A stretch of 64,000 nucleotides of DNA from Hypanus sabinus (Eukaryota), in NCBI RefSeq assembly GCF_030144855.1, contig NC_082728.1:33232001-33296000 (forward strand), in the 5' to 3' direction. Of this stretch, positions 698 through 64,000 are shown in pieces. Below the pieces are notes generated by a model, which did no database searches, was not told the origin of the DNA, and saw nothing but the letters and a program-made list of their open reading frames with translations. Each line of letters starts with the position of its first letter. The first letter of the stretch is position 1. Position numbers and translations under genes: made by a program.

Positions 698-1642
698 CTA
701 GTTTAAAGTCTGCCCTGTAGCCCTAGCAAACCTCCCTGCTAGGATATTGGTCCCCCCAGGATTCAAGTGTAACCCATCCTTCTTGAACAGGTCACGCCTG
801 CCCCAGAAGAGGTCCCAATGATCCAGAAACTTAAATCCCTGCCCCCTGCTCCAATCCCACAGCCACACATTCATCCTCCACCTAATTCCATTCCTACTCT
901 CACTGTCGCGTGGCACAGGCAGTAATCCCGAGATTACTACCTTTGCGGTCCTTCTTCTTAACTGCCTTCCTAACTCCCTATACTCTTGTTTCAGGACCTC
1001 TTCCCCTTTCCTACCTATGTCATTGGTACCTACATGTACCACGACCTCTGGCTCCTCACCCTCCCACTTCAGGATATCTTGGGCGCGATCAGAAACGTCC
1101 CGAACCCTGGCACCAGGAAGGCAAATTACCATTTGGGACTCCCGATCACCTCCACCAAACTGCCTGTCTGAACCCCTGACTATCGAGTCCCCTATTACTA
1201 TGGTCCTCTTTCTTCTATCCCTAACCTTCTGAGCTCCAGGGCCATCCTCTGTGCCGGAGACCCGGCCACTGTCACTTCCACCAGGTAGGCTGTCCCCCCC
1301 CCCCCCAACAGTACTCAAACATGAGTACTTATTGACAAGGGGTAAAGCCACTGGGGTACTCTCTAGTACCTGCCTCTTCCCCTTCCTGACCGTGACCCAC
1401 CTATCTGCCTCCCGTGGCCCCGGAGTGACCACCTGCCTTTAGCTCCTCTCAATCACCTCCTCACTCTCCCTGACCAGGCGAAGGTCATCAAGCTGCAGCT
1501 CCAGTTCCCTAACTCGGTCCCTCAGGAGCTGCAGTTCAGTGCACCTGGCGCAGTTGTGGACGTCCGGGAGGCTTGGAGACTCCAGGATCTCCCACATCCG
1601 ACACCAAGAACAACAAGCTGCCCTCACACTCATACTTCCCAA
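698..1642 (-). pseudogene. CR1 ORF1 (zinc finger + SGNH esterase) with one in-frame stop at 1439-1441
   Basis: ORFs 1439..1642 and 698..1432 are in the same frame, separated by TAA AGG CAG. Confidence 0.85.
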
Positions 1643-2965: not shown

Positions 2966-3240
2966 TTTCATTCATTCATTCATTCATTCATTTATTCATT
3001 CATTCTTCAGGGCACTCTGTTCCCAGCTGCCCGTTCCATGCACTCACCACTCTCTGCGTAAAAATCTTACCCCTGACATCTTCACTGTACCAACTTCCAA
3101 GCACCTTGAAACTGTGCCCTCTCATGCTAGTCATTTAAGCATTGGGAAAAAGCCTCTGATTATCCACATGATCAATGCCTCTCATCATCTTATACACCTC
3201 TATCAGGTCACTTCTCATCCTCTCTCACTCCAAGGAGTAA
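2966..3240 (-). mobile_element. CR1 3' fragment with (TTCA)n microsatellite at 2967-3005
   Basis: Antisense of CR1 ORF2 C-terminus (GDLIEVYKM-like) next to a tetranucleotide repeat. Confidence 0.7.
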
Positions 3241-3269
3241 AGCAAAACAGTGGCTTGCCCTAATCAATA

Positions 3270-4460
3270 ATGAATGTCAACATATAAAGTAAGAGAAGGC
3301 CACATAAGAAGTCAAATACACGGTAAAGCAGAAATACATTTGACTGAGAGAGCTAGAAAAGGTAGTAATAGGGTACAAAATGAATTTGAAAGAGAGTTTA
3401 ATGTTATAAAAAAGGGATTTAACAGAGATGTTAAAACTGCAGATTTAATGTAAACATAACAAGAGCAAATGATTGGTGAAGGGAAAGTGACATGTATTGG
3501 AGATTCGTGAAAAATAATTTGCTTAATAGCCAACAGAAGGTAGAGGAACAGATACGTAGGCAGATTATGGAAATACCTAAAAACAACAGGGTTGTTGTAG
3601 AGGGTAATTTTAACTTCCTCAATATTGACCTGGACTTCCTCAGTGTAAAAAGGCTTAAACAGTGAAGAAATAGTAAGTTGCATCTGAGATGATTTCTTGA
3701 AACATTATGTGGATAGTTTAACTGCAGGAGGGACCTTATATTGGGAAGCTAGCCTGACCAGGTGACTGACATTTAAGTGGGAAAGCTTAATGTGTTTGTT
3801 TGTTTGTTTATTTATTCATTGAGGTACAGCATGAAGAAGACTAGCTCCCTGCCAAGAGGCAAAAAGGGGGGATTAAAAGAGGCCTTTTCTGATTGGCTGC
3901 CATTGATTGGTGGTGGTCTGCAATATTTGGTTTTGGGACTGCTTTTTATCACAATATATGTCAATGATGTAGATGATGGACTCGATGGGTTTGTGGCCAA
4001 GTGATGATACAAAGGTAGGTGGAGGGGAAGGGTATGTTGAGGAAGTAGGGAGTCTGCAGAAGAACCTGTACAGGTTAGGAGAATGGATGAAGAAGTGACA
4101 AATGGAGTACAGTGTAGGGATTGGTATTTTGTGCATCTTAGTTGAAGGAATAAAACTGTAGACTATTTTCTAAACAAAAAAATTCAGAAAGCTGAGGTGC
4201 AAAGAGACTTGGGAGTCCTTGTGCAGGATTCCCTAAAGGTTAACTTGTTGTTCAAGTTGTTGGTAAGGAAGGCAAATTAAATTTGGAGAGGATGAGACTA
4301 AAAGCAAGGATATAACGCTGAAACCATTTAAGGCATTGATCAGACTGCATTTGGAGCATTGTGAGCAGTTTTGTGTCTTATCTAAGAAAGGATAAGCTGG
4401 TATTGGAGAGGGTTCAGGGGAGGTTTGTGAGAATGCTCCTGGGAATGAAAGGGTTAATGG
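3270..4460 (+). mobile_element. Degraded CR1 ORF2 fragments
   Basis: RT remnants (LVLGLLFITIYVNDVDDGLDGFVAK), multiple stops and deletions. Confidence 0.7.
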
Positions 4461-5411
4461 CTCTGGCCACCAGGGAGAATCTTCCTTCTCCCCCTTCCAT
4501 CAGGCAAAAGATTTTTAAAAAAGCCTGAAAGCACTTACTACCAGGCTCAAGGACAACTTCCGTACTGCTGTTATAAGACAATTGCATGTTTCCCCAGTAT
4601 GATAAGATGAATCCTTGACCTCACAGTCTGCCTCATTATGACTTTGCAACTTGTAGTCTACCAGCACTGCACTGTCTCTGTAACACTTTATTATGCACAC
4701 TCTTACTGTTTTACATTGTAAAACCTCAATGCACTTCTGTAATCAACTGATTTGTATGAAATTTGTGCAAGGCAAATTTTTCACTGTACCTTGGTACACA
4801 TGATAGTAAACAGATTCCAATTCTAATTCTTCTCTATCGTATGCCAACCAGACCTTCAAACAAAGTTCCAGGTGCTGTCTTACCCACCATTCTATACCAG
4901 TGTACACATCATTATCCCTACCTGACACATATTTTGGTAGATGACTATTGCCCAGATTGTCTGTGTACCTACTTGCCCACTTTCTGGATAGTATACCTGA
5001 ACCATTGCCTTAATCATCAACCCTAACAGCCCTAACACACTGTAAGCATTGAATGAGACAATTCTTGGTCTTGTGCCCTGGGCTTCCACATCTGTTAAGA
5101 GTCTGAGCTTATATAGATTGTAGGATGGGTCTGAACATGGATTTTGGAATGAAGAAATAGCTTTCATGTTAAATTTCTGACTGAAAAACTGGTTGACCTG
5201 CCACTACAATAAAATCATTCTGAATACTGTCTGAAATTTTGAGTGTCTTTTTTATTTTAAAAGTTAATTATTAAAGATTTATTACATTTCCATGAAATTA
5301 AGTAATCAAACGGAAAGGATTTATTTTTCTTATTGACTTCAGCTGTTCTGTGCCTTGATCGTAATCTTCAGAAATTCAGATTTCATCCTGTCTGTGTCTT
5401 GGAAAATTCTC

Positions 5412-5519
5412 TTAAATTTTTCTGTTGGTATCTTTCAGTTCAGATTTCAGTTCATTTATTTGGATGCACAAAGAACAGCATGAATAGCTGATTAAACTAT
5501 GAGCTATAAACACAGGAAT
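5412..5519 (-). CDS. Candidate terminal exon of the B7-family gene (tentative)
   Basis: Acceptor tatattttcaccag|. Joined phase-1 to the TM exon it gives ...RKKFSK-DSCVYSS*; in phase 0 it gives IPVFIAHS...DTNRKI*. Three minus-strand AATAAA lie downstream (5251, 5278, 5320). Confidence 0.3.
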   Translation of the reverse strand: MPVFIAHSLISYSCCSLCIQINELKSELKDTNRKI

Positions 5520-5788
5520 CTGGTGAAAATATATTGACAATAGTGATTTTGCTAATTTACATGAAGAATTATGTTGACAAAGGTAGATTAATGACAGAAT
5601 CTGGCTCTTTTTTTGAGAATTAACTTGATACACATATTCAATTTTCTTTATCATCTGTTGGAGAAAAAAATAACTCATCAGTTGAAGGATGGAATTAAAG
5701 TAACCTCAGAGGAAACAAATTCTTTGCATTCAAAGAGAAGTACATGAAATATAGTGAGATCAGAGTGTGGTATGCTGAGATTCCATAT

Positions 5789-24741: not shown

Positions 24742-27018
24742 ATAGACAGTAGACAATAGACAATAGGTGCAGAAGTAGACCATTCGGCCCTTCGAGCCTG
24801 CACCGCCATTCGGAGATCATGGCTGATCATCTACTATCAATACGTGGTTCCTGCCTTGTCCCCATATCCCTTGATTCCCCTATCCATAAGATACCTGTCT
24901 AGCTCCTTCTTGAAAGCATCCAGAGAATTGGCCTCCACTGCCTTCTGAGGCAGTGCATTCCACCCCCCCCCCCCACACAACTCTCTGGGAGAAGAAGATT
25001 TTCCTTAACTCTGTCCTAAATGACCTACCCCTTATTCTTAAACCATGCCCTCTGGTATTGGACTCTCCCAGCATCTGTAACATATTTCCTGCCTCTATCT
25101 TGTCCAGTCCCTTAATAATCTTATATGTTGCAATCAGATCCCATCTCAATCTCCTTAATTCCAGCGTGTACAAGCCCAGTCTCCCTAACCTCTCTGCGTA
25201 AGACAGTCCAGACATCCCAAGAATTAACCTCGTGAACCTACGCTGCACTTCCTCTACAGCCAGGATGTCCTTCCTTAACCCTGGAGACCAAAACTATACA
25301 CAATACTCCAGGTGTGGTCTCACCAGGGCTCTGTACAAATGCAAGAGGATTTCCTTTCTCTTGTACTCAATTCCCTTTGTAATACAGGCCAACATTTCAT
25401 TAGCCTTCTTCACTGCCTGCTGCACTTGCTCATTCACCTTCAGTGACTGATGAACAAGGACTCCTAGATCTCTTTGTATTTCTCCCTTACCTAACTCTAA
25501 ACCGTTCAGATAATAATCTGCCTTCCTGTTCTTACTCCCAAAGTGGATAACTTCACACTTATTCACATTAAACATCATCTGCCAAGTATCTGCCCACTTA
25601 CCCAGTCTATCCAAGTCACCCTGAATTCTCCTAACATCCTCATCACATGTCACACTGCCACCCAGCTTAGTATCATCAGCAAACTTGCTGATGTTATTCT
25701 CAATGCCTTCACCTAAATTGTTGATATAAATCGTAAACAGCTGTGGTCCCAATATCGAGCCCTGTGGCACCCCACTAGTCACCACCTGCCATTCCGAGAA
25801 ACACCCATTCACTGCTACCCTTTGCTTTCTATCTGCCAACCAGTTTTCTATCCATGTCAATATCTTCCCCCCAATGCCATGAGCTCTGATTTTACCCACC
25901 AATCTCCTATGTGGGACCTTATCAAATGCCTTCTGAAAATCGAGGTACACTACATCCACTGGATCTCCCTTGTCTAACTTCCTGGTTACAACCTCGAAAA
26001 TCTCCAATAGATTAGTTAAGCATGATTTGCCCTTGGTAAATCCATGCTGGCTCGGCCCAATCCTATCACTGCTATCTAGATATGCCACTATTTCATCTTT
26101 AATAATGGACTCTAGCATCTTTCCCACCACCGGTGTCAGGCTGAAAGGTCAATAGTTCTCTGTTTTCTCCCTCACTCCTTTCTTAAAAGGTGGGATAACA
26201 TTAGCCATTCTCCAATCCTCAGGAACTGATCCTGAATCTAAGGAACATTGAAAAATGATTACCAATGCATCCACAATTTCCAGAGCCACCTCCTTTAGTA
26301 CCCTAGGATGCAGACCATCTGGACCTGGGGATTTGTCAGCCTTCAGTCCCATCAGTCTACTCGTCACTGTTTCCTTCCTAATGTCAATATGTTTAATTTC
26401 CTCTGTTACCCTATGTCCTTGGCTCATCCATACATCTGGGAGATTGCGTGTGTCTTCCCGAGTGAAGACAGATCTAAAGTACTTATTAAATTCTTCTGCC
26501 ATTTCTCTGTTTCCCATAACAATTCCACCCAATTCATTCTTCAAGGGCCCAACATTGTTCTTAACTATCTTCTTTCTCTTCACATACCTAAAAAAGCTTT
26601 TGCTATCCTCCTTTATATTCCTGGCTAGCTTGCATTTGTACCTCATTTTTTCTCCCCGTATTGCCTTTATAGTTAAGTTCTGTTGTTCCTTAAAAATTTT
26701 CCAATCATCTGTCTTCCCACTCACCTTAGCTCTGTCATACTTCTTTTTTTCTAATACTATGCAATCTCTGACTTCCTTTGTCAACCACTGTGGCTCCTTC
26801 CCCCCTTTGAATTCTTCCTTCTCTGGGGGATGAACTGATTTTGCACCTTGTGCATTATTCCCAAGAATACCTGCCATTGCTGTTCCACTGTCTTTTCTGC
26901 TAGGATATCCGTCCATTTAACTTTGGCCAGCTCCTCCCTCATGGGTCCATAGTCTCCTTTGTTCAACTGCAACACTGACACCTCCAATCTGCCCTTATCC
27001 TTCTCAAATTGCAGATTT
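24742..27018 (-). mobile_element. Relatively young 5'-truncated CR1 (ORF2 RT, few disablements)
   Basis: ORFs 26149..26916, 25294..26130 and 24880..25248; (TAGACAA)n tail at 24744-24765. Confidence 0.93.
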
Positions 27019-35415: not shown

Positions 35416-36574
35416 TCTCTGAGATCAATCATAGTCCCTTGGGGTGAAAAATGATGGTGAAAGATCCAAGACTGGCTGAGTGAAGCCTTCCAAGAACAAA
35501 AGGAGATGTGTGAAGTTGCCTTCATTGACCTTCATTCCCGTCTCTTGGCTATCAGCATCTAAAAGAAAAGACAAGTTGTGTTATCTTCATCAGTTACTTT
35601 GAAGCTCTCTTCTGATGTTACTAATAGTCGTGGAAGTGATATAAAACCACAAAACAAATAAAGTAAGTTATACATGTTCTTACTCTGAACACATTGGAAG
35701 CCCAATCTTTCATCTTCAGCAATTTTAGAAACAAGTTATAGTCATGTATTTACAAGTACCTGATGCTATACTGTGGCATTATATCTGTTCTTGTCCTGAA
35801 GGAAAAATGCATTGTTTCTGATCCCATTGCCAAGGCCACAATGGTGCACTTGAAGTGGTAGGTTTGCAAACAAAATGGTCATTGTTGCACCATGCAGTGA
35901 GCAAACATTGCACCTACACTGCCATGCTATCTTTACAGGAAATGTTGCCTCACAATACCCTATTCTATCAACTGTTGTCCTCTTTTTCATCTCAAACTAC
36001 CCTTCAATCTGTCAATGTAGTGAGATCATAGGCATCCTTACACTGGAAGAAATTATGAAAGTAATATTCCTGGTAATTTTCTGATTCTGATTCTTATTCT
36101 GACATCTCGACTTTGTAACTGCTTCATTTCTCCCTTCTCAAATGGAAAAGTCAAATGCTTTCTTTCCTCCACTTTCAACAGCAGATATTTCACTTCCTCA
36201 TTGCAACTGCAATGGTGTCCTTATTAGTACAATTGTAAAGATTTCTCTTCCGACCCTGAATTTTCTATTACTGACTAAAGGAACTTGTTCCCCTGCAGTA
36301 GACCTCTTGCCGCAATCTTTTTGTGCTAATGATATGTTGAACAGGAAACAGCTGTATCATAACAGTAAATACAATGACAGAAATAATAAATATCACCACG
36401 TGTTCTTATATTCACATATGACTCACAGACAAGCATTCATTCTGACATCTATTTTTGCAGGTCTCATTCCACAAATGAGAAAGCTGGACATGGATAATGA
36501 TGTGTCACATTTTCACTATCTGTCCATTAGGTCATTTGGGGAGATATTTATTTTAAGAGTTTTGATGTGAAATA

Positions 36575-36965
36575 CACTCAGTGTCTACAGGAGGGGAACC
36601 TGGTGTGATCTTCTGCTGTTTGTGGCCCATTCACTTCAAGGTTCAACATGTTGTGCATTCAGAGACACTCTTCTGCACATCATTGTTGTAACACGTGGTT
36701 ATTTGGGTTACTGTCACCTTCCTGTCAACTTCAACCGGTCAGGTCATTGTCCTCTGACCTCTCTCATTAGCAAAGTGTTTTTGCCCACAGAACTGCTGTT
36801 CACTGGAATTTTTTTTCTTTGTTTCCTGCACTATTCTCTGTCAACCCTAGAGAGTGTTGTATATGAAAAGGCCAGGCAATCAGCATTTTCTGAGATTCTC
36901 AAACCTCCTGTCTGGCAACAACAAACGTTCCATGTTCAAAGTCACTTAAATCACATTGCTTCAGC
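36575..36965 (-). mobile_element. Tc1-derived element truncated by a Rex1 insertion
   Basis: Same family as 2225 and 33625. Confidence 0.65.
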
Positions 36966-36974
36966 ATTCTTAAC

Positions 36975-38180
36975 AGTGATTGGAAAACTGAGCCTACTGG
37001 GCCTGAACACCTCCCTCTGCAACTGGATCCTAGACTTCCTGACTGGGAAACCTCAGTCAGTCTGGATCGGGAGCAGCATCTCCAACACCATCACACTGAG
37101 CACGGGGGCTCCCCAGAGCTGTGTGCTCAGTCCACTGCTGTTCATTCTGCTGACCCACGACTGTGCTGCAACACACAGCTTGAACCACATCATCAAGCTC
37201 GCCGATGACATGACCGTGGTGGGTCTCATCAGCAAGAACGATGAGTCAGCATACAGAGAGGAGGTGCAGTGGCTAATGGACTGGTGCAGAGCCAACAACC
37301 CGTCTCTGAATGTGAACAAAACAAAAGAGATGGTTGTTGACTTCAGGAGGGCACGGAGCAACCACTCTCCACTGAACATCGATGGCTCCTCAGTATAGAT
37401 CATTAAAAGCACCAAATTTCTTGGTGTTCACCTGGTGGAGAATCTCACCTGGTCCCTCAACACCAGCTCCATAGCAAAGAAATCCCAGCAGCATCTCTAC
37501 TTTCTGTGAAGGCTGAGAAAAGTCCATCTCCCACCCCCCCATCCTAATCACATTCCTCAGAGGTTGTATTGAAAACATGCTGAGCAGCTGCATCACTGCC
37601 TGGTTCAGAAATTGCACCATCTCGGATCGCAAGTCCCTGCAGCGGATAGTGAGGTCAGCTGAGAGGTTCATTGGGGTCTCTCTTCCCACCATTACAGACA
37701 TTTACACTACACGCTGCATCCCCAAAGCAAACAGCATTATGAAGGACCCCACGCACCCCTCATACAAACTCTTCTCCCTCCTGCCATCTGGTAAAAGGCA
37801 CCAAAGCATTCGGGCTCTTATGACCAGACTATGTAACAGTTTCTACCCCCAAGCTATCAGACTCCTCAATACCCAGAGCCTGGACTGACATCAACTTACT
37901 GCCCTCTACTGTGCCTATTGTCTTGCTTATTATCTATTGTAATGCCTGCACTGTTTTGTGCACTTTATGCAGTCCTGGGTAGGTCTGTAGTCTAGTGTAG
38001 ATTTTTTTGTCTGTGTTGTTTTTACGTAGTTCATTGTCATTTTTATGTAGTTCAGTGTAGTTTTTGAACTGTTTCATGTAGCACCATGGTCCTGAAAAAT
38101 GTTGTCTCATTTTTACTGTGTACTGTACCAGCAGTTATGTTCAAAATGACAATAAAAAGTGACTTGACTTAACTTGACTC
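36975..38180 (+). mobile_element. Rex1/Babar LINE, 5'-truncated
   Basis: [51 protein letters not shown]; (GACTT)n tail. Confidence 0.88.
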
Positions 38181-42054: not shown

Positions 42055-43310
42055 AGTCAAGTCACTTTTATTGTCATTTCGACCATAACTGCTGGTACAG
42101 TACACAGTAAAAATGAGAAAATGTTTTTTTCAGGACCATGGTGTTACATGACACAGTACAAAAACTAGACTGAACTACATAAAAAACAACACAGAAGAAA
42201 ACTACACGGGATTACAGACCTACCCAGGACTGCATAAAGTGCACAAAACACTGCAGGGGTTACAATAAATAATGAACAAGACAATAGGGCAGTAAAGTGT
42301 CAGTCCAGGCTCTGGGTATTGAGGAGTCTGATAGCTTGGGAGAAGAAACTGTTACATAGTCTGGTCGAGAGAGCTCAAATGCTTTGGTGCCTTTTCCCAG
42401 ATGGCAGGAGGGAGAAGAGTTTGTATGAGGGGTACGTGGAGTCCTTCATAATGCTGTTTGCTTTGCAGATGCAGCGTGTAGTGTAAATGTCTGTGATGGC
42501 GGGAAGAGAGATCCCGATGATCTTCTCAGCTGACCTCACTATCCACTGCAGTGTCTTGCGATCCGAGATGGTGCAATTTCCAAACCAGGCAGTGATGCAG
42601 CTGCTCAGGATACTCTCACTAGAACCCCTGTAGAATGTGATGAGGATGGGGGGTGGGAGATAGACTTTCCTCAGCCTTTTCAGAAAGTAGAGATGCTGCT
42701 GGGATTTCTTTGCTATGGAGCTAGTGTTGAGGGACCAGGTGAGATTCTCTGCCAGGTGAATACCAAGAAATTTGGTACTCTTAACGATCTCTCCCGAGGA
42801 GCTGTCGACGTTCAGCGGGGAGTGGTCGCTCCGTGCCCTCCTAAAGTCAACAACCGTCTCTTTTATTTTGTTGACATTCAGAGACTGTTGGCTCTGCAAC
42901 AGTCCATTAGCCACTGCACCTCCTCTCTGTATGCTGTCTCATCGTTCTTGCTGATGAGACCCACCATGGTCATTTCATCGGCGAACTTGATGATGTGGTT
43001 CGAGCTGTGTGTTTCAGTACAGTCATGGGTCAGCAGAATGAACAGCAGTGGACTGAGCACGCAACTCTGGGGAGCCCCCGTGCTCAGTGTGATGGTGTTG
43101 GAGATGCTGCTCCCGATCCGGACTGACTGAGGTCTCCCAGTCAGGAAGTCTAGGATCCAGTTGCAGAGGGAGGTGTTCAGGCCCAGTAGGCTCAGCTTTC
43201 CAGTCAGTTTCTGAGGGATGATTGTGTTGAATGCTGAACTGAAGTCTATGAACAACATCCAAGTGTACGTGTCTTTTTTGTCCACGTGGAGGGTGATGGC
43301 AATGGTGTTG
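42055..43310 (-). mobile_element. Rex1/Babar LINE, 5'-truncated; inverted relative to the 36975 copy
   Basis: [32 protein letters not shown]; (GACTT)n tail. Confidence 0.9.
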
Positions 43311-43944
43311 TCTGTTGAGCGGTTGGGACGGTTACTGACCTGGCAGAAATTCCAGGCCGCTGTTGTAGGAGTGAGATTGTGCTAATCTGGGAAACTCCAT
43401 TCATGAACAACTGGAGAGAAGTGCTGCCAATGATATTGTCCTTGATCCAGAAATCGCTTCGGGAGTCTTGTATTTGTCTCATGATAGAAGATGTCAATTA
43501 TATTTTCTCACTGAAGCAAAAATTAAAGATAAGCTTTGTGTTACTCAAAAAAACTTGATTTTCCTGAAAAAATGGCATCTCATTTACAAGAAACTGAAGT
43601 TTCTGAAAATTTATCAATGATAAACCTTTCAAAATAATAAGATCATTCTACCCAGCTCTACAGCAAGACCATAAGCAGGTTCGGAATGAATACATTTGCA
43701 AGTTTCCTACATTTTGAAATCAGAACGACTCTGTGTGGAGGAAATGATAAACCGATAGCTAGGAATGAATTTGCCATTCCTTAACAAGATGTGGAATCAA
43801 CTTGAATCGTTTATAAAATAATTGTAAAATAAAAGTGAGGAAGAAATCCAAGTGTGTTTGACTGGCATCTCGGATAGCTTGCATGCCTTGACATTTTATT
43901 TTTTATTTAGAGATATAGCACAGTGCATCTAAGTGACTGACAAA

Positions 43945-46545: not shown

Positions 46546-47524
46546 AATATTTCAGTGATTATTAAGATATTTTGGTGGTTAGCATACATAACTTCACACA
46601 TAAGACATCTTTAGGGAGCAGTGTCTCAGAAAGTCAGTGTCCATTATTAAGGACCTCTAGCACCCAGGGCATGCTCTTTTCTCACTGCTACCATCACATA
46701 GGTGGTATAGAAGCCTGAAGGTACAAACTCAGCGATTCAGGAACAGCTTCTTCCCGACTGCCATCTGATTCCTAAATTGACTTTGAATCTTTGCACACTA
46801 CCTCACCTTTTTTAATATACAGTATTTCTGCTTTTGTAATTTTTAAAAATCTATTCAATATTCGTAATTGATTTACTTGTCTATTTGTTATTATGTTTTA
46901 TTTTATTTATTTATTTTTTCTCTCTGCTAGATTATGTATTGTATTGAACCGCTGCTGCTAAGTTACCAAATTTCATGTCACATGCCGGTGATAATAAACC
47001 TGATTCTGTTAACTTCAGCAACTGACTTCCACCACCAATCTTCAAATATGAACATAGACAACAGATTAAATTTAAAATGCTGCTCTGAACAATGGGATCC
47101 TAAAAACCCTGAAAAACCAATGCTGATTAAAATGCCTTTAGATGTCAGCAGTGTGGGTGCGAATGAGTAGATTTGAAGTTTGTGTGTAGTTCAAAGTAAG
47201 CATTGTGGATGCATTGCAATTACGGAATTGTCCTTTTGATCTATAGGTCATAAAATGTTGTGTAGTGATAAGTCAAGCAGGTCTTTTCCTCTGAAAGGAT
47301 CTCTGAATGATGCCTGCTATGCCTCATTTTGATCTTCCTATCTTGTCCATTGACAGTCTATACATGGCCCAGCCAGAACTGGACACATTTTTGTGCCTTG
47401 TTGTTGAATTTGGCAAGATCTGCCAACAGTACAGGGTTCCTCTAGCAAGGGGCATTGCAGGAGATGTTACATAGTTTGTGGCTCAGTTGCACATTCACAA
47501 GTTTTTGGGCTGGTTGCATATCCC

Positions 47525-47975
47525 CATTTATTTAGTGACACCTTTGAATGACCTACACCAGTCCTAACTTAACAGTCCTAAGTCTGCTAAGGCACTTCCA
47601 GGTTGCCCAGTTGCAATTAGCTCCTGGGGGAGGCTTTCATCCGTTGGGGGTTTGAGACTGGTGAGCCGGTCTTCCCACAAGGCGATGCGGGCTTCAGATG
47701 GGGCTGATTGTAATGGAACAACACTGTTCATGAAGCTCCTCCTTGGTGTAGGTGTACGACCGTGTAGAGGGTGCTTCTCATCTGATGTTTGACAGAGTCA
47801 TCCTATCTTGCTGGCTACCATTCTTCTTATATCAGGGGGAGCGATACCCACCAGGATATATAGGCTGTTGGTGTTTGTTGGTTTTAAGCAACGTGTGATA
47901 AGTCGGCAGCTTGCATTCAGAATGGCATCCATCTTCTTAGCATGAGTAGATCTTTCCCATGCAGGGCAGGCATTT
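47525..47975 (-). mobile_element. Non-LTR retrotransposon ORF2 C-terminal fragment (RTE-X/I-like, clade uncertain)
   Basis: LYILVGIAPPDIRR...WKCLSRLR motif on the minus strand. Confidence 0.5.
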
Positions 47976-49790
47976 TGATAAATAAAGAGACTGCTTCATA
48001 GCGATCAGTACTTCTCTCTGGTGACTTTGCTCACACAACGATATTGGGGGTTCGTCCGTGAGGCCTTTGTGACCCATTGTGTGGCTAGCAATTTCGGCAG
48101 TCTAAGTGGGTGAGTATTTTTAATAAACACTTGGACCTGTTCAGGTTGGTGGATGCAGGATTGTCAGGTAATATGAACGTGGTGGGAGTTGAAATGGTGT
48201 GTGTGTGTACATATATGAGGAAGGATTCATGTGTACATGTATGAGGAAGGGTTGGATAATCCAAGGAGGGAAGACCCCGTCTTCCTGAAGATACTGAAGG
48301 AAGATCTGGGACCTGAGCACAGCCAGCAGAAAGTTTTAGATTTCGGGATAGTGGTGACCTGGTGTCACGGACCAGTTAAATAGACTGGAGGAGGGGCAGA
48401 GGGAGTTGTAAAGAGGCTGTGCTGAATGTAGCTGTTGAGAATTTGCTTTGTGTGCCAGCAGCCAGGGCATGTTTCAGGGAACTGCTGGAATAGACGTGGG
48501 AGGATAAAAGAGATGATTTGTTACAGCTGTGGCTTCTCAGATGAAGATTAGACGTAATGCTCTGAGGAACAGTGTAAGTATGTAAGTCACTTACCAAAGC
48601 AGGCAGAATCCATAGCAACGCCCTCTCTTTTCAATTTGACTGCTGACCAGATTATAGAGCTGATGAGATCAAACAAACGGGCTGATGGCAGCCTCTGTTG
48701 CCAGTGATGATCATTCATGGATGTACACAAGAGGCTTATTAGGGGCAAGTAACGTGAAATGTCAGTGAACACAGGGTCGTCAGTATCAATAACTGATCTA
48801 CCCTTGCCCAAGACTAGAGAGGCAATTTACATTACCAGTGCAGGAGGTGAAACAATGAGGGTGGAGGGGACTCAGCCCAGGTACTTGAGATTGAGGGAGT
48901 GTAGCTTGCTGTAGATTTCTGGGTGTGCCCAAACATTAAAAGCAACATCCTGGGAATCGAGGCACTGAGTAAAGCAGGTGCGATCATAGACTTAGGAAAA
49001 GGAGAAATAACATGGACAAGAGAGGGAGAGCAAAGTTCGTGACCTGCAAAGCAGCTAACTTGGCCCACAGAGAGAGAGCAGCACCAAGCAGGGAGGAGAG
49101 AAAAGGCAACATGAGGGAATCATGTCAGGAGGTCCCCAGGGGAGCATCCAAGCACAGTCAGGAGCTTTTTGACGTAGTGCAGCTGCCTGAGGAGATTACA
49201 GTAAAAGCTTGCCAGAAAGGAGACAGTAAGGAGCCAAAAGTGAGCGAGTGGGTAGACTTCAGTGTGAGGAGAGCAGCGGACAAACAAGAAGCAACAGAAA
49301 TTACAAGTATATAGAAAGAAACCACAACTCCCAATTTAATAAGATTACATGGGGAAGGACCACTGAAACCAGGGTAAAGTGTTGAAGGACCGAGCAAAAC
49401 AACAGTAGCACATTACAGATCAGAGAGAGAGCCAGAGGGAGAGGAGATAGTCATCCCATAGCTTGGCGACCAAATCCTGGTGATGGTGCAGCCTGAAAAG
49501 GCAGAGTTTGCTCTCAGATTGATAGGACCACAGACAGTAGTCTTAAAAAATGACTCTTAGTCTGTGTGCAGGGTTGGCAAGTTAATCATTGAAAACACTG
49601 GACTCAAATTAAACCGTACAACTCACCTTCTTGTGGCCCGCCCAGTCAGAGTGGGACATCAGTGTAGTTACAGAGAACCTAAGAGATGAACACCAGCTAG
49701 CTGCACCAGACCTGACCACGGTTAATGTGAACGCGAAGTTAGAGGACATTGAGGGTGCAACAGAAGGCCGAGAATAGCATGCTAAAGTGT
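47976..49790 (+). mobile_element. Internally deleted endogenous retrovirus relic
   Basis: AATAAA 47981; PBS-Pro-like 48045-48062; CCHC knuckle 48444-48485; protease VNTGSSVS...NILGIEALSKAGAII; RNase H-like and integrase C-terminal remnants. Confidence 0.75.
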
Positions 49791-50039
49791 AATGGTAATT
49801 GTACTTGGTAAGGAAGGCTGGTTGCTGAAGGTACTATACATGATTGATTGTGTAGCATAGTATAGAAAAGGTATTAGGGAAAATAGATGGGAAGGGATGC
49901 AACTTACATCAGAGACATCAGGTTCCACAACATCGAGGGTGTGGCAGATAAAGAGTGTGATTAAACTGCAATTGGCCAGCTGGGAGGGAGGCAACAGGCA
50001 TACAAATAACAAAGCTGCATCTTTAAAGAGCGTTACTCA

Positions 50040-50830
50040 AGTTTCAGCTTAGTATCTGATGGCTGAGGTATAATAACTGTTCCCAAACCTGATGGTCTGG
50101 AACTTAAGGTCCCTTTGCCTTCTGACCAATGGCGGCAGCAAGAGGAGAGCATGTCCTTGATGGCAGGGGTTCCTGAAGATGGACGCTGCTTTCAAGTGAC
50201 AGCACTCCTTGGTGGTCAGTGGTGGGGAGGGCTTTACCTGTGAAAGACTGGGTTGTGCCACTACTTTTTGTAGGATTTTCCATTCAAGGGCATTCGTGTT
50301 TCCATATCAGGCTGTGATGTAACCAGTCAGTATACACTCCACCACATATCTATCGAAGTTTGTCAAAGTTTCACATAGGTAGATATACAGAGAGAAAAAA
50401 TGAATACCATTAAGTATAGATATGGAAATTAAATAGCTAAATTAAGAATAGTAGTGCAAAAAGAGAAAAAAAATGATAAAAGATAAAACGGAGTAGAGTT
50501 CATGGGTTTAATGTCTGTTTAGACATCTGATGGTAGAGGGGAAGAAGATGTTCCTGAATTGCTGAAAGTGTGCCTGCAGGCTTCTGTACCTCCTTCCTCA
50601 TGGTAACAATGAGAAGAGGGCATATCTTGGGTGATGGGGATCCTTCCTAATGGACATTTAATAATCCATTGTTTTATGGCAGAAGTACAGTGTAAACCAT
50701 GCAAAACTATAACTTACAATAATAAATAAATAGATAGATAGATGGATGAATAGTGCAGAAGACAAATATTGATGCAATGTTCATGGATTCAGAAATCTGA
50801 TACCAGAGGGGTGGAAGTAGAAGGTTCAGT
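50040..50830 (-). mobile_element. Cluster of Rex1/L2-like 3' fragments
   Basis: AASIFRNPCHQGHALL..PP..RR and QDMPSSHCYHEEGGTEA reading frames. Confidence 0.6.
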
Positions 50831-61404: not shown

Positions 61405-62674
61405 CAAAGTACACTGCAGATGCTGTGGTCAAATCAAGACGTACAAAAAAGCTGGAGGAACTCAGCCGGTCGAGCAGCATCCGTTGAAAGAAGCAGTCAA
61501 CGTTTTGGGTCGAGACCCTTCGTCAGGAAGGAGGGGGCAGGAGCCCTATAAAGAAGGTGGGGGGAGGGAGGAAAACCAATCAGAGGAAAGATCAAGGGGT
61601 GGGGGAGGGGAAGCAGGGAGGGGATAGGCAGGAGAGGTGAAGAAGGAATCTAAGGGTAGTATGGGTAGTAGAAGAAGGCAGAGTCATGAGAGGTGATAGG
61701 CAGCTAGAAGAGAGACAGAGTGAAGGTGGGATGGGGGAAGGGAGAGGGAAAGAATTACCAGAAGTTGGAGAATTCGATGTTCATACCAAGGGGCTGGAGA
61801 CTACCCGAACGGTATATGAGATGTTGTTCCTCAAACTGAAGTTTAGCCTCATCATGGCAGTAGAGGAGGCCAGGTATGGACATATCCGAATGGGAATGTG
61901 AAGGAGAATTGAACTGAGTGGCAACCAGGATATCCTGTCAGTTGTGGCGGATGGAGCGTAGGTGCTCGACGAAGCAGTCCCCCAATCTGTGTCGGGTCTC
62001 GCCGATGTAGAGGAGGCCACACCGGGAGCACCGAATGCAATAGATTACTCCAACAGACTCACAAGTGAAGTGTTGCCTCCCCTTGAAGGACTGTTTGGGG
62101 CCCTGAATGGTGGTAAGAGATGAGGTGTAGGGACAGGTGTAGCACTTACGCTTGCAGAGATAAGTGCCAGGTGGGAGATCTGTGGGGAGGGATGTGTGGA
62201 CCAGGCAGTCGTGGAGGGAATGATCCCTGCAAAAAGCAGAGAAGGGTAGAGAGGGAAAGATGTCCTTAGTAGTGGGGTCCTGTTGAAGGTGGTGGAAGTT
62301 GCGGAGGATAATATGCTGGATCCGGAGGCTGGTGGGGTGATAGGTGAGGACAAGGGGGACGGTCCATGTTGTGGTGACAAGAGGATGGGGTGAGGGCCGA
62401 AGTGCGGGAAATGGAGGAGATGCGGGTGAGGGCATCATTGATGACGGCAGAAGGGAAACCACGATTCTTAAAGAAAGAGGACATTTGGGATGACCTGGAA
62501 CGGAAAGCCTCATCCTTGGAGCAGATGCGGTGGAGACAGAGGAACTGGGAATAGGGAATAGAGTTTTTGCATTTGCCAGGGTGGGAAGAGGTATAATCAA
62601 GGTAGTTATGGGAGTCAGTGTGTTTATAGAAGATGTCAGTGGACAGTCTAACTCCAGAAATGGAGACCGAAAGT
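61405..62674 (-). mobile_element. 5'-truncated Penelope-like element (RT C-terminus + GIY-YIG endonuclease + pLTR)
   Basis: STDIFYKHTDSHNYLDY; FTCESVGVIYCIRCSRCGLLYIGETRHRLGDCFVEHL; hammerhead-like motif at 61495-61526. Confidence 0.9.
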
Positions 62675-63300
62675 AATTGCACTTTAGTAAGTTCTCCAAT
62701 TATGTATGCATTCTTTACCTGGGTGAAATTAATGGTTTGACAAAGTCTAACATCATGCTTCTGTTGATTAAGATAGGTGCACAGTGTTGCCAGAAGCATG
62801 TCAGTAAGCTGCTCCTTCATTGCTAATTCTCTAGAAGTTTTTTGTTCACGAGATCCAACACATGCATCCAGATGAATAAAGCTTAACTTTCTATCTTCTT
62901 CAGTGCAAGTTACCAACTGCTATCTTGCTACCTATTATCTGCTCTTCTCTTCGGGCTGTGAAATCTCTCTTACCAGGCTGTGGGTGGCTGAGCTGGTGTT
63001 ATGTGCAATGATAGTGAACCCTCTGAATGAGTAAATGCTTCTGAGGAGACACCCTCCCTGATCCACATAAAGTCATAGGGATGAAAGCTACATGGGAGAT
63101 TACAGTAATGAATGAGAACCAACGATGTATGAATGTTAAAGTGCAGAGCTGGGCTGAGAAGTGGCAGATGGAGTTCAATCTGGAAAAGTGTGAAATGATT
63201 CACTTTGGAAGTCCAAACTTGAAGAGACTGTACAGGGCGAATGGTAGGACTCTTAGCAGTGTGGAGGACCAGCGGGATCTTAGGGTCTACGATCTATAGA

Positions 63301-64000
63301 TGTCAGGGTCCGGTCCTGTTCCGGAATCCGCGTTCCAGGTCTCGATCCGGTTCGAGGGCTCCGGACTCCGGGTCCTGCAGTTGTCCCTCCTGTCACCCAT
63401 GATCTAGTTAGGACCCTCCTGGCTCAAGGAGGCACACCTGTGACTCATTGAACTGCAGGTGTTTATAAGGGGCCTTGGGACTGGGACCAGGCGGGTGGTG
63501 GTTTTGTTCTGTTTCCTGTTTCTCCGCTGGCTCCCAACTCTTCTCTGCATTCTGCTATCCTGCCCGGGCTCAGATCTACTCCTCATCATGCTTCTCTGCC
63601 CCATACCAGTACTGCCAGGTTGGTCCTCTCCCCCACCTTTCTTCCCATGCGCTGGTCCCACTTCTCCGCTCGTTTGTTTCGTTCACGTGGTCGCACTGTC
63701 TGCTGGCCTTTCCCAATTTTCCTGCTATTATGGCTGTTGTGTTGGTCACCCTGGACCTATGCCCATTCCTACCCCTTGCCTCCATCGGGCAGATCCGGCC
63801 AACCTGCCGCTGCCCGGCGGTGGTACTGCCTGTTCCTACCCCTTGCCTCCGTCGGGCAGGCCTGGCCGTTCTTCCGCTGCCCGGTGGGGGTTCTGCCCCG
63901 TCCTCCTCTTCCGCCCGGACCCTGGGATTGTGCCCCGCCTAGGGGCCTGCGTCGTGCCCGGCCTCCGGTGTTTCCACCTGGAAGGCGGCCCTACCCGGGG
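63301..64000 (+). mobile_element. GC-rich LTR-like element starting TGTCA, inserted in a CR1 fragment; runs off the window end
   Basis: TGTCA start, TTTATAAG at about 63461, blocks homologous to 16538-17258, 67-bp tandem duplication 63768-63901. Confidence 0.65.

Follow-up and report, generated by a model that had tools for sequence, protein, structure and literature searches.

A short endogenous retrovirus relic without reverse transcriptase in the ray Hypanus sabinus, probably a dead copy of a non-autonomous multicopy family

A 64-kb stretch of the Hypanus sabinus genome, referred to here as the window, contains a broken retrovirus relic of about 2 kb on its forward strand (47976-50030). 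The locus raises two questions: from which retroviruses does it descend, and did it lose its missing parts where it lies or spread in this short form? The primer-binding site (PBS), the end of capsid, two zinc knuckles, the protease and the end of RNase H follow one another in the retroviral order (Table 1). The locus has no reverse transcriptase (RT, about 1.7 kb), integrase core or env, and little of gag is left. The relic is a real retroviral fossil. It very probably belongs to the Retroviridae, as the order PBS-gag-protease-(RT)-RNase H-integrase is seen together with a protease and an RNase H of retroviral type, the integrase tail being weak. The explanation we consider probable is that the locus is a dead copy of a multicopy endogenous retrovirus (ERV) family lacking RT, integrase core and env, likely a non-autonomous passenger of a class I-like ray retrovirus.

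Table 1. Features of the element and its left flank (window coordinates)
Feature	Position	Strand	Basis
LINE 3' fragment, flanking, not part of the element	47333..47976	-	translation; multicopy
Putative R/U5 remnant of the 5' LTR, with AATAAA at 47981-47986	47976..48044	+	sequence; multicopy
PBS, 15/18 to tRNA-Pro	48045..48062	+	shuffle test; other copies
Splice-donor-like 8-mer in the leader	48108..48115	+	position only
Remnant of the capsid C-terminus; small indels, and at the start a duplication with 26-nt spacing	48222..48433	+	match to P0007
First CCHC zinc knuckle, motif whole	48444..48485	+	motif; Pfam zf-CCHC
Second zinc knuckle, decayed	48519..48560	+	spacing kept; histidine gone; two stops
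Retroviral protease, dead	48694..49021	+	matches P0007; C-half best against epsilon L028
TGA TGA; stops of a shifted frame, not of gag	48705..48710	+	frame comparison with P0007
Retroviral RNase H, C-terminal end; the bulk of RNase H, the tether and RT missing upstream	49135..49332	+	Pol profile, tblastn
Probable C-terminal tail of integrase, split over two frames; no zinc finger or catalytic core	49462..49625	+	weak
Purine-rich stretch and end of the multicopy region	49870..50030	+	13/15 purines at best; depth

Both ends of the element abut other repeats, and no LTR pair was found in the window. The left edge is truncated by a LINE fragment, which we take from its motifs to be RTE-like and for which a Pfam search gave no match. 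The segment between this fragment and the PBS is a putative LTR remnant, judging by its place before the PBS. It contains the AATAAA reported in the initial annotation of this DNA, has a raw-read depth of 73 reads at 48003 in sequencing run X12, and no second copy of it was found in the window. The proposed tRNA-Pro-type PBS also stands: the 18-mer is the one place in the window where no more than three bases differ from the tRNA-Pro PBS, a closeness reached in one of 100 shuffles. Where the 18-mer departs from tRNA-Pro, all of the contig depth from runs X1, X2 and X4 matches tRNA-Pro at two of the three positions, so that the other copies support the primer call. No tRNA gene for comparison was found in the 64-kb window, and the comparison with other tRNAs relies on known tRNA sequences and on this agreement of the other copies. 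The PBS had further been read as a pointer to class I retroviruses, which does not hold. Nine of 24 viral loci with the exact tRNA-Pro 18-mer are of other types, eight having a deltaretrovirus-type layout and one (L007) a Gypsy-type layout, and we rejected the PBS as a class I marker. The GG|GTGAGT 8-mer of the leader is present as described, and its position would suit a splice donor, but the window has three instances of it where 2.2 are expected. As this is chance frequency, the 8-mer adds nothing alone and was discarded as evidence.

The region from capsid to protease was compared with 1.84 billion representative proteins, using 48228-48902 with stops read as X as the query. Nine matches were obtained at E values up to 0.001, only one of them strong. 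This best relative is XP_062926799.1 of Mobula hypostoma (P0007), which is colinear with the element and identical at 92 of 237 positions (E 2.9e-36). It contains the C-terminal part of capsid, two whole knuckles and a protease that passes the Pfam RVP threshold (24.3 bits, cut-off 20.7). A protein from the Chinese sturgeon, Acipenser sinensis (P0012, MGH0161627.1; 246 residues, E 2.7e-4), shares the capsid C-terminal motif, also has two knuckles and stops short of any protease; it may represent a related lineage of ray-finned fish. The other seven are generic knuckle matches (all but P0008 were scanned). A word-index protein search for relatives longer than about 390-480 residues found none for the gag-protease or the RNase H/integrase reading, and the same search with alignment A1 returned four unrelated knuckle proteins only. 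No relatives were found in viral or metagenome contigs, and neither a helper element nor an RT-bearing relative was recovered in the protein and contig searches.

The recognisable gag includes a capsid C-terminal remnant that the initial annotation had missed. Its first segment is identical to residues 20-54 of P0007 at 18 of 35 positions, further segments match as well, and it also matches the sturgeon protein. Only 160 nt separate the PBS from the start of the capsid match, too little for matrix or for the N-terminal domain of capsid. Within the remnant, at 48299-48409, depth drops to single-copy level in all four runs that were aligned; this copy has small deletions there relative to P0007. 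Both knuckles are as first described. The first is whole, although its Pfam zf-CCHC match (E 0.0034, 17.9 bits) lies below the cut-off of 20.8, and the second is correctly spaced but decayed; its counterpart in P0007 is whole. Two knuckles had been considered odd for class I. In the available text of Jern et al. 2005 (PMC1224870), two nucleocapsid (NC) knuckles are reported for epsilonretroviruses and the HERV-H group, and the pair is thus ordinary for class I and no novelty. Class I elements have one or two, and the two found here are compatible with class I and not diagnostic of it.

The protease was correctly recognised as two retropepsin halves in different frames. It is dead, having lost the catalytic aspartate and acquired stops and frame breaks near 48680, 48745 and 48880. 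Pfam and PDB searches with the halves and with the 3' part of the element gave nothing; the best match of the C-terminal half is the epsilon reference L028 (E 0.002). Our reading of the Gag-protease junction differs from the initial one, in which TGA TGA ended gag in frame and argued for a class I element with stop readthrough. The gag frame matches P0007 as far as 48686 and resumes doing so at about 48735. From 48694 to about 48745 a different frame matches P0007, with a score of 33 against 10 and 13, and 2 of 2000 shuffles reach 33. The TGA TGA therefore falls in a short shifted stretch. It is present, but outside the homologous frame, and P0007 is open from capsid through protease. We thus rejected it as a gag stop, and the readthrough argument for class I falls with it. 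At our locus two matching frames are open across the break between NC and protease, where about four codons are missing compared with P0007. Diverged copies align over the junction with two or three gaps and a near-identical piece from X2 with none, which fits lesions private to the Hypanus sabinus locus.

In P0007, an automated gene model, Gag and protease share one frame with no stop between them, and in the references examined (two gamma, one epsilon and the snakehead retrovirus, SnRV) a gag stop lies 26-39 codons before the protease active site. A stop-free junction in both of the two copies seen is a mild oddity and, as both copies are decayed and one is an automated model, we regard it as a lead only. 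The last residues of P0007 (257-274) match 48900-48956 of the window in a frame that is not that of the protease, and the Mobula copy thus appears to be frameshifted and decayed as well.

Downstream of the protease, an RNase H C-terminal-like segment had been proposed, and the gammaretroviral Pol profile supports it. The segment maps to positions 741-795 of the profile, with 9 of 1000 shuffles as good, and the top four tblastn matches all correspond to it. The protease active site and the RNase H end motif are separated by 484 nt, whereas three reference Pol proteins have about 2,220 nt there, and neither the retroviral RT profile nor the 165 reference ORFs gave an RT or env match in register. 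The RT profile is narrow, since it missed the window's LINE RTs, which Pfam detected. The absence of RT, already noted from the sequence, is supported mainly by length. A weak match at 49658-49759 to a gammaretroviral protease-RT linker (E 0.024 among 165 queries) was rejected.

The proposed integrase tail fared less evenly. It has no Pfam, PDB or homologue match, and against whole Pol proteins its score is within the null (82 of 300 shuffles). Against the profile it falls at the integrase end, with 43 of 1000 shuffles as good. Better values came only from a test restricted to the last 130 residues of 14 gamma and epsilon Pol proteins and allowing one hand-chosen frame break (15/2000 by mean score, 55/2000 by best score). 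The end motif of the tail follows the RNase H motif after 341 nt, compared with about 1,110-1,180 nt in three references. About 350-400 nt remain from the tail to the point where the multicopy region ends. This leaves no room for env, whose absence is expected for a deleted derivative. The purine-rich stretch and what follows it may be the polypurine tract and the first part of a truncated 3' LTR; at 50031-50041 the depth is down to that of a single copy.

We then asked which retroviruses the surviving parts resemble. Six segments were scored against 65 reference loci, taking the best local score in each group. The groups, labelled from layout, length and recall, are of unequal size (18 gamma, 3 epsilon, 1 SnRV and two Gypsy controls), and shuffled queries reached at most 47-56 in a null that takes the best of 8 loci, not 65. 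The capsid end scores 72 with gamma, 50 with SnRV and 36 with Gypsy. For the N-terminal half of the protease the values are 75 (gamma), 74 (SnRV), 67 (epsilon), 66 (lenti/beta) and 32 (Gypsy), and for the C-terminal half 64 (epsilon) and 43 (SnRV). The RNase H end scores 69 with gamma, 53 with epsilon, 36 with SnRV and 30 with Gypsy. The sturgeon capsid piece and the integrase tail score within the null. In a protease tree of 28 rows, 26 of them references picked by a motif filter and none of these Gypsy, the window and P0007 group with gamma, epsilon and SnRV at 80/93. The order among these is not separated: no strongly supported set holds the window sequence, and its protease branches separately, outside the three epsilon sequences.

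The element is retroviral rather than Gypsy, as the initial annotation had held. Both Gypsy controls are at background for all six segments (the second, P0013, at 26-31), the control set being small and unrepresented in the tree; the RNase H end is of retroviral type; and P0007, which passes Pfam RVP, fails both retrotransposon-type protease cut-offs. A remnant of a Ty3/Gypsy LTR retrotransposon is accordingly highly improbable, even though two observations lean that way. L007 combines an exact tRNA-Pro PBS with Gag and protease in one stop-free frame, and the top Atlas feature matches of P0007 (0.94 and 0.92) are to unnamed Gag/protease clusters, those at 0.94 carrying Asp_protease_2 or Retrotrans_gag on a minority of their members; structure matches were under threshold. 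L007 itself (IMGVR_UViG_3300009142_000002, segments 2967-5658 and 1-2330) is filed among viral contigs, has integrase before RT and a knuckle within its open Gag-protease frame, and is presumably Gmr1-like.

A more serious competitor is a non-autonomous relic of the same kind whose parent was snakehead-retrovirus-like (clade Huo) and not class I. The best colinear match to capsid, NC and protease by tblastn is to SnRV, ahead of gamma (E 2e-5): the SnRV-length locus L031 matches P0007 over 236 residues at E 7e-7. SnRV also ties with gamma for the N-terminal half of the protease, the sturgeon protein scores best with SnRV, though within the null, and the available text of PMC4422223 places SnRV-like ERVs in cartilaginous fish too (CmiERV lineage I of the elephant shark). 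Against such a parent, the RNase H end finds no match in SnRV, where its score is at background, the C-terminal half of the protease scores far better with epsilon, and SnRV has one knuckle and a gag stop where our element has two knuckles and, in its matching frames, no stop. Only one reference of the SnRV clade was compared. We consider a parent of this type unlikely, and an SnRV-like assignment of the element itself is similarly doubtful.

We instead favour, with some confidence, a class I-like (clade Mu) affiliation, without assigning the element to any genus. The C-terminal half of the protease and the RNase H end match gamma and epsilon best. Clade Mu is preferred to gamma proper because, in the available text of PMC6001957, clade Mu occurs in nearly all jawed vertebrates and the gamma-type clade Jin is restricted to amniotes. 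Two NC knuckles likewise occur among the clade Mu class I ERVs (CmiERV II/III of the elephant shark, WDSV/WEHV; PMC1224870). The element departs from them in lacking RT, integrase core and env, and, in its matching frames and together with P0007, in lacking the stop that the gamma and epsilon references examined have before the protease.

Lokiretroviruses have an RT that is sister to those of other retroviruses, and a paramyxovirus-like Env. No cartilaginous fish is among their hosts as listed in the available part of PMC7947760.

Whether the short form spread was examined in sequencing runs. Eleven runs from 8 studies contained 5-21% of the sampled words, and four of them (X1, X2, X4 and X12) were aligned at 80% likeness. 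In the raw reads of X12 every one of the 14 bins between 48410 and 49963 has a depth of 21-106, compared with 0.9 in the bin 48299-48409. Related copies therefore number tens or more, a magnitude and not an exact count, given a Hi-C library and one baseline bin. Among the 24 pieces listed of more than 55,000, ten show about 2-5% divergence from the element and the other 14 show 15-20%. X1, X2 and X4 each contribute one close piece that continues past the end of the element into the repeat on its 3' side, as would fit a single insertion common to three differently labelled organisms.

The pieces from X4 bear most directly on the missing RT. Beside a near-identical contig (48906-49404, 14 differences), this run contains a separate contig (48963-49193) with 44 differences and one gap, or 19% divergence, which spans 49016-49135 and extends more than 50 nt beyond the protease-RNase H interval on each side. 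At least one paralogue thus also lacks RT. Of the 24 pieces listed, it is the only diverged copy that spans the RT junction fully; X1 record 5 (49039-49329, 53 differences) covers most of the interval and X2 record 12 part of it. In all three contig runs there are also joints from 49034 to about 49115 with undetermined sequence between, which could derive from copies holding more sequence at this point.

These data weigh on a third alternative, in which an ordinary full-length ERV family inserted here, the locus lost its parts afterwards and the short form never spread alone. The heavy decay of the copy and the different internal joints of other copies are compatible with it, and depth on both sides of a junction is no proof that the junction is shared. 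It is opposed by the diverged X4 contig crossing the interval next to a near-identical one, and four big losses that spare the PBS and both ends seem better suited to a selected satellite. We judge loss after insertion distinctly unlikely, and the element is probably the non-autonomous derivative suggested at the outset. By this account, an internally deleted provirus would have kept its LTR, tRNA-Pro PBS, leader and polypurine tract, and its shortened RNA would have been packaged, reverse-transcribed and integrated by the Gag and Pol of a helper, as MusD serves ETn. With pol gone, there would have been no selection for a read-through stop. The insertion at this locus would predate the split of several species; the copy would later have decayed, with LINEs and neighbouring repeats removing most of both LTRs.

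A protein in which Gag and protease are joined without a stop is the alpharetrovirus arrangement and otherwise foreign to class I. It is tempting, if speculative, to see here an unnamed ray lineage with its own protease branch next to gamma, epsilon and SnRV, a tRNA-Pro primer, two knuckles and a stop-free Gag-protease, outgrown by an RT-less satellite that reached tens or hundreds of copies before several species of rays diverged. Translation strategy separates the gamma and beta branches in the available text of PMC1224870, and an autonomous parent with a stop-free Gag-protease, if it truly existed, would be an exception to that rule.

Non-autonomous ERVs without RT are a known kind of genome parasite, and the ray family is most likely a further member. 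ETn, BHIKHARI-2 and chicken ENS-1 have likewise kept LTR and PBS, lost pol and reached many copies, an analogy of lifestyle only. According to the available parts of the respective sources, mouse ETn uses the enzymes of MusD (PMC12283350), zebrafish Bik-2 encodes gag and neither pol nor env (bioRxiv 10.1101/2024.03.25.586437), and non-autonomous elements are an ordinary class of zebrafish ERVs (PMC8672886). Unlike the ETn-type satellites, our element still has remains of capsid, NC, protease and RNase H, and probably of integrase; there is no open gag in this copy.

No description of the ray family was found in the literature searched; repeat libraries and the supplements of pan-vertebrate ERV screens may hold it. 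Both PBS-Pro words are absent from the text supplements of Han 2015 (PMC4422223; 28,503 characters), which may lack full proviruses. The retroviruses of cartilaginous fish are thinly catalogued, the available text of PMC4422223 and PMC10699275 covering elephant shark, catshark and a few genomes, and because ERV screens such as these start from Pol or RT, a family without RT is easily missed. The family could serve batoid genomics as an old marker, and it points to a helper lineage worth placing. As regards its age, no LTR pair was found, and the rate given for sharks in PMC4422223 is an assumption. The copy described here is a single dead locus without sign of function.

The window is otherwise rich in repeats, and no clear host gene was seen in it. 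LINE debris at 701-1438 (-), 25297-26148 (-), 36571-37395 and 42881-43381 (-) includes three Pfam RVT_1 matches and one GDSL-esterase reading, which we take to be of LINE ORF1 type. The last part of the window (61941-64000), from which three frames tried against Pfam gave no match, is purine-skewed and then GC-rich; it contains long frames without stops that overlap one another, and a tandem pair of 67 nt at 63766-63897.
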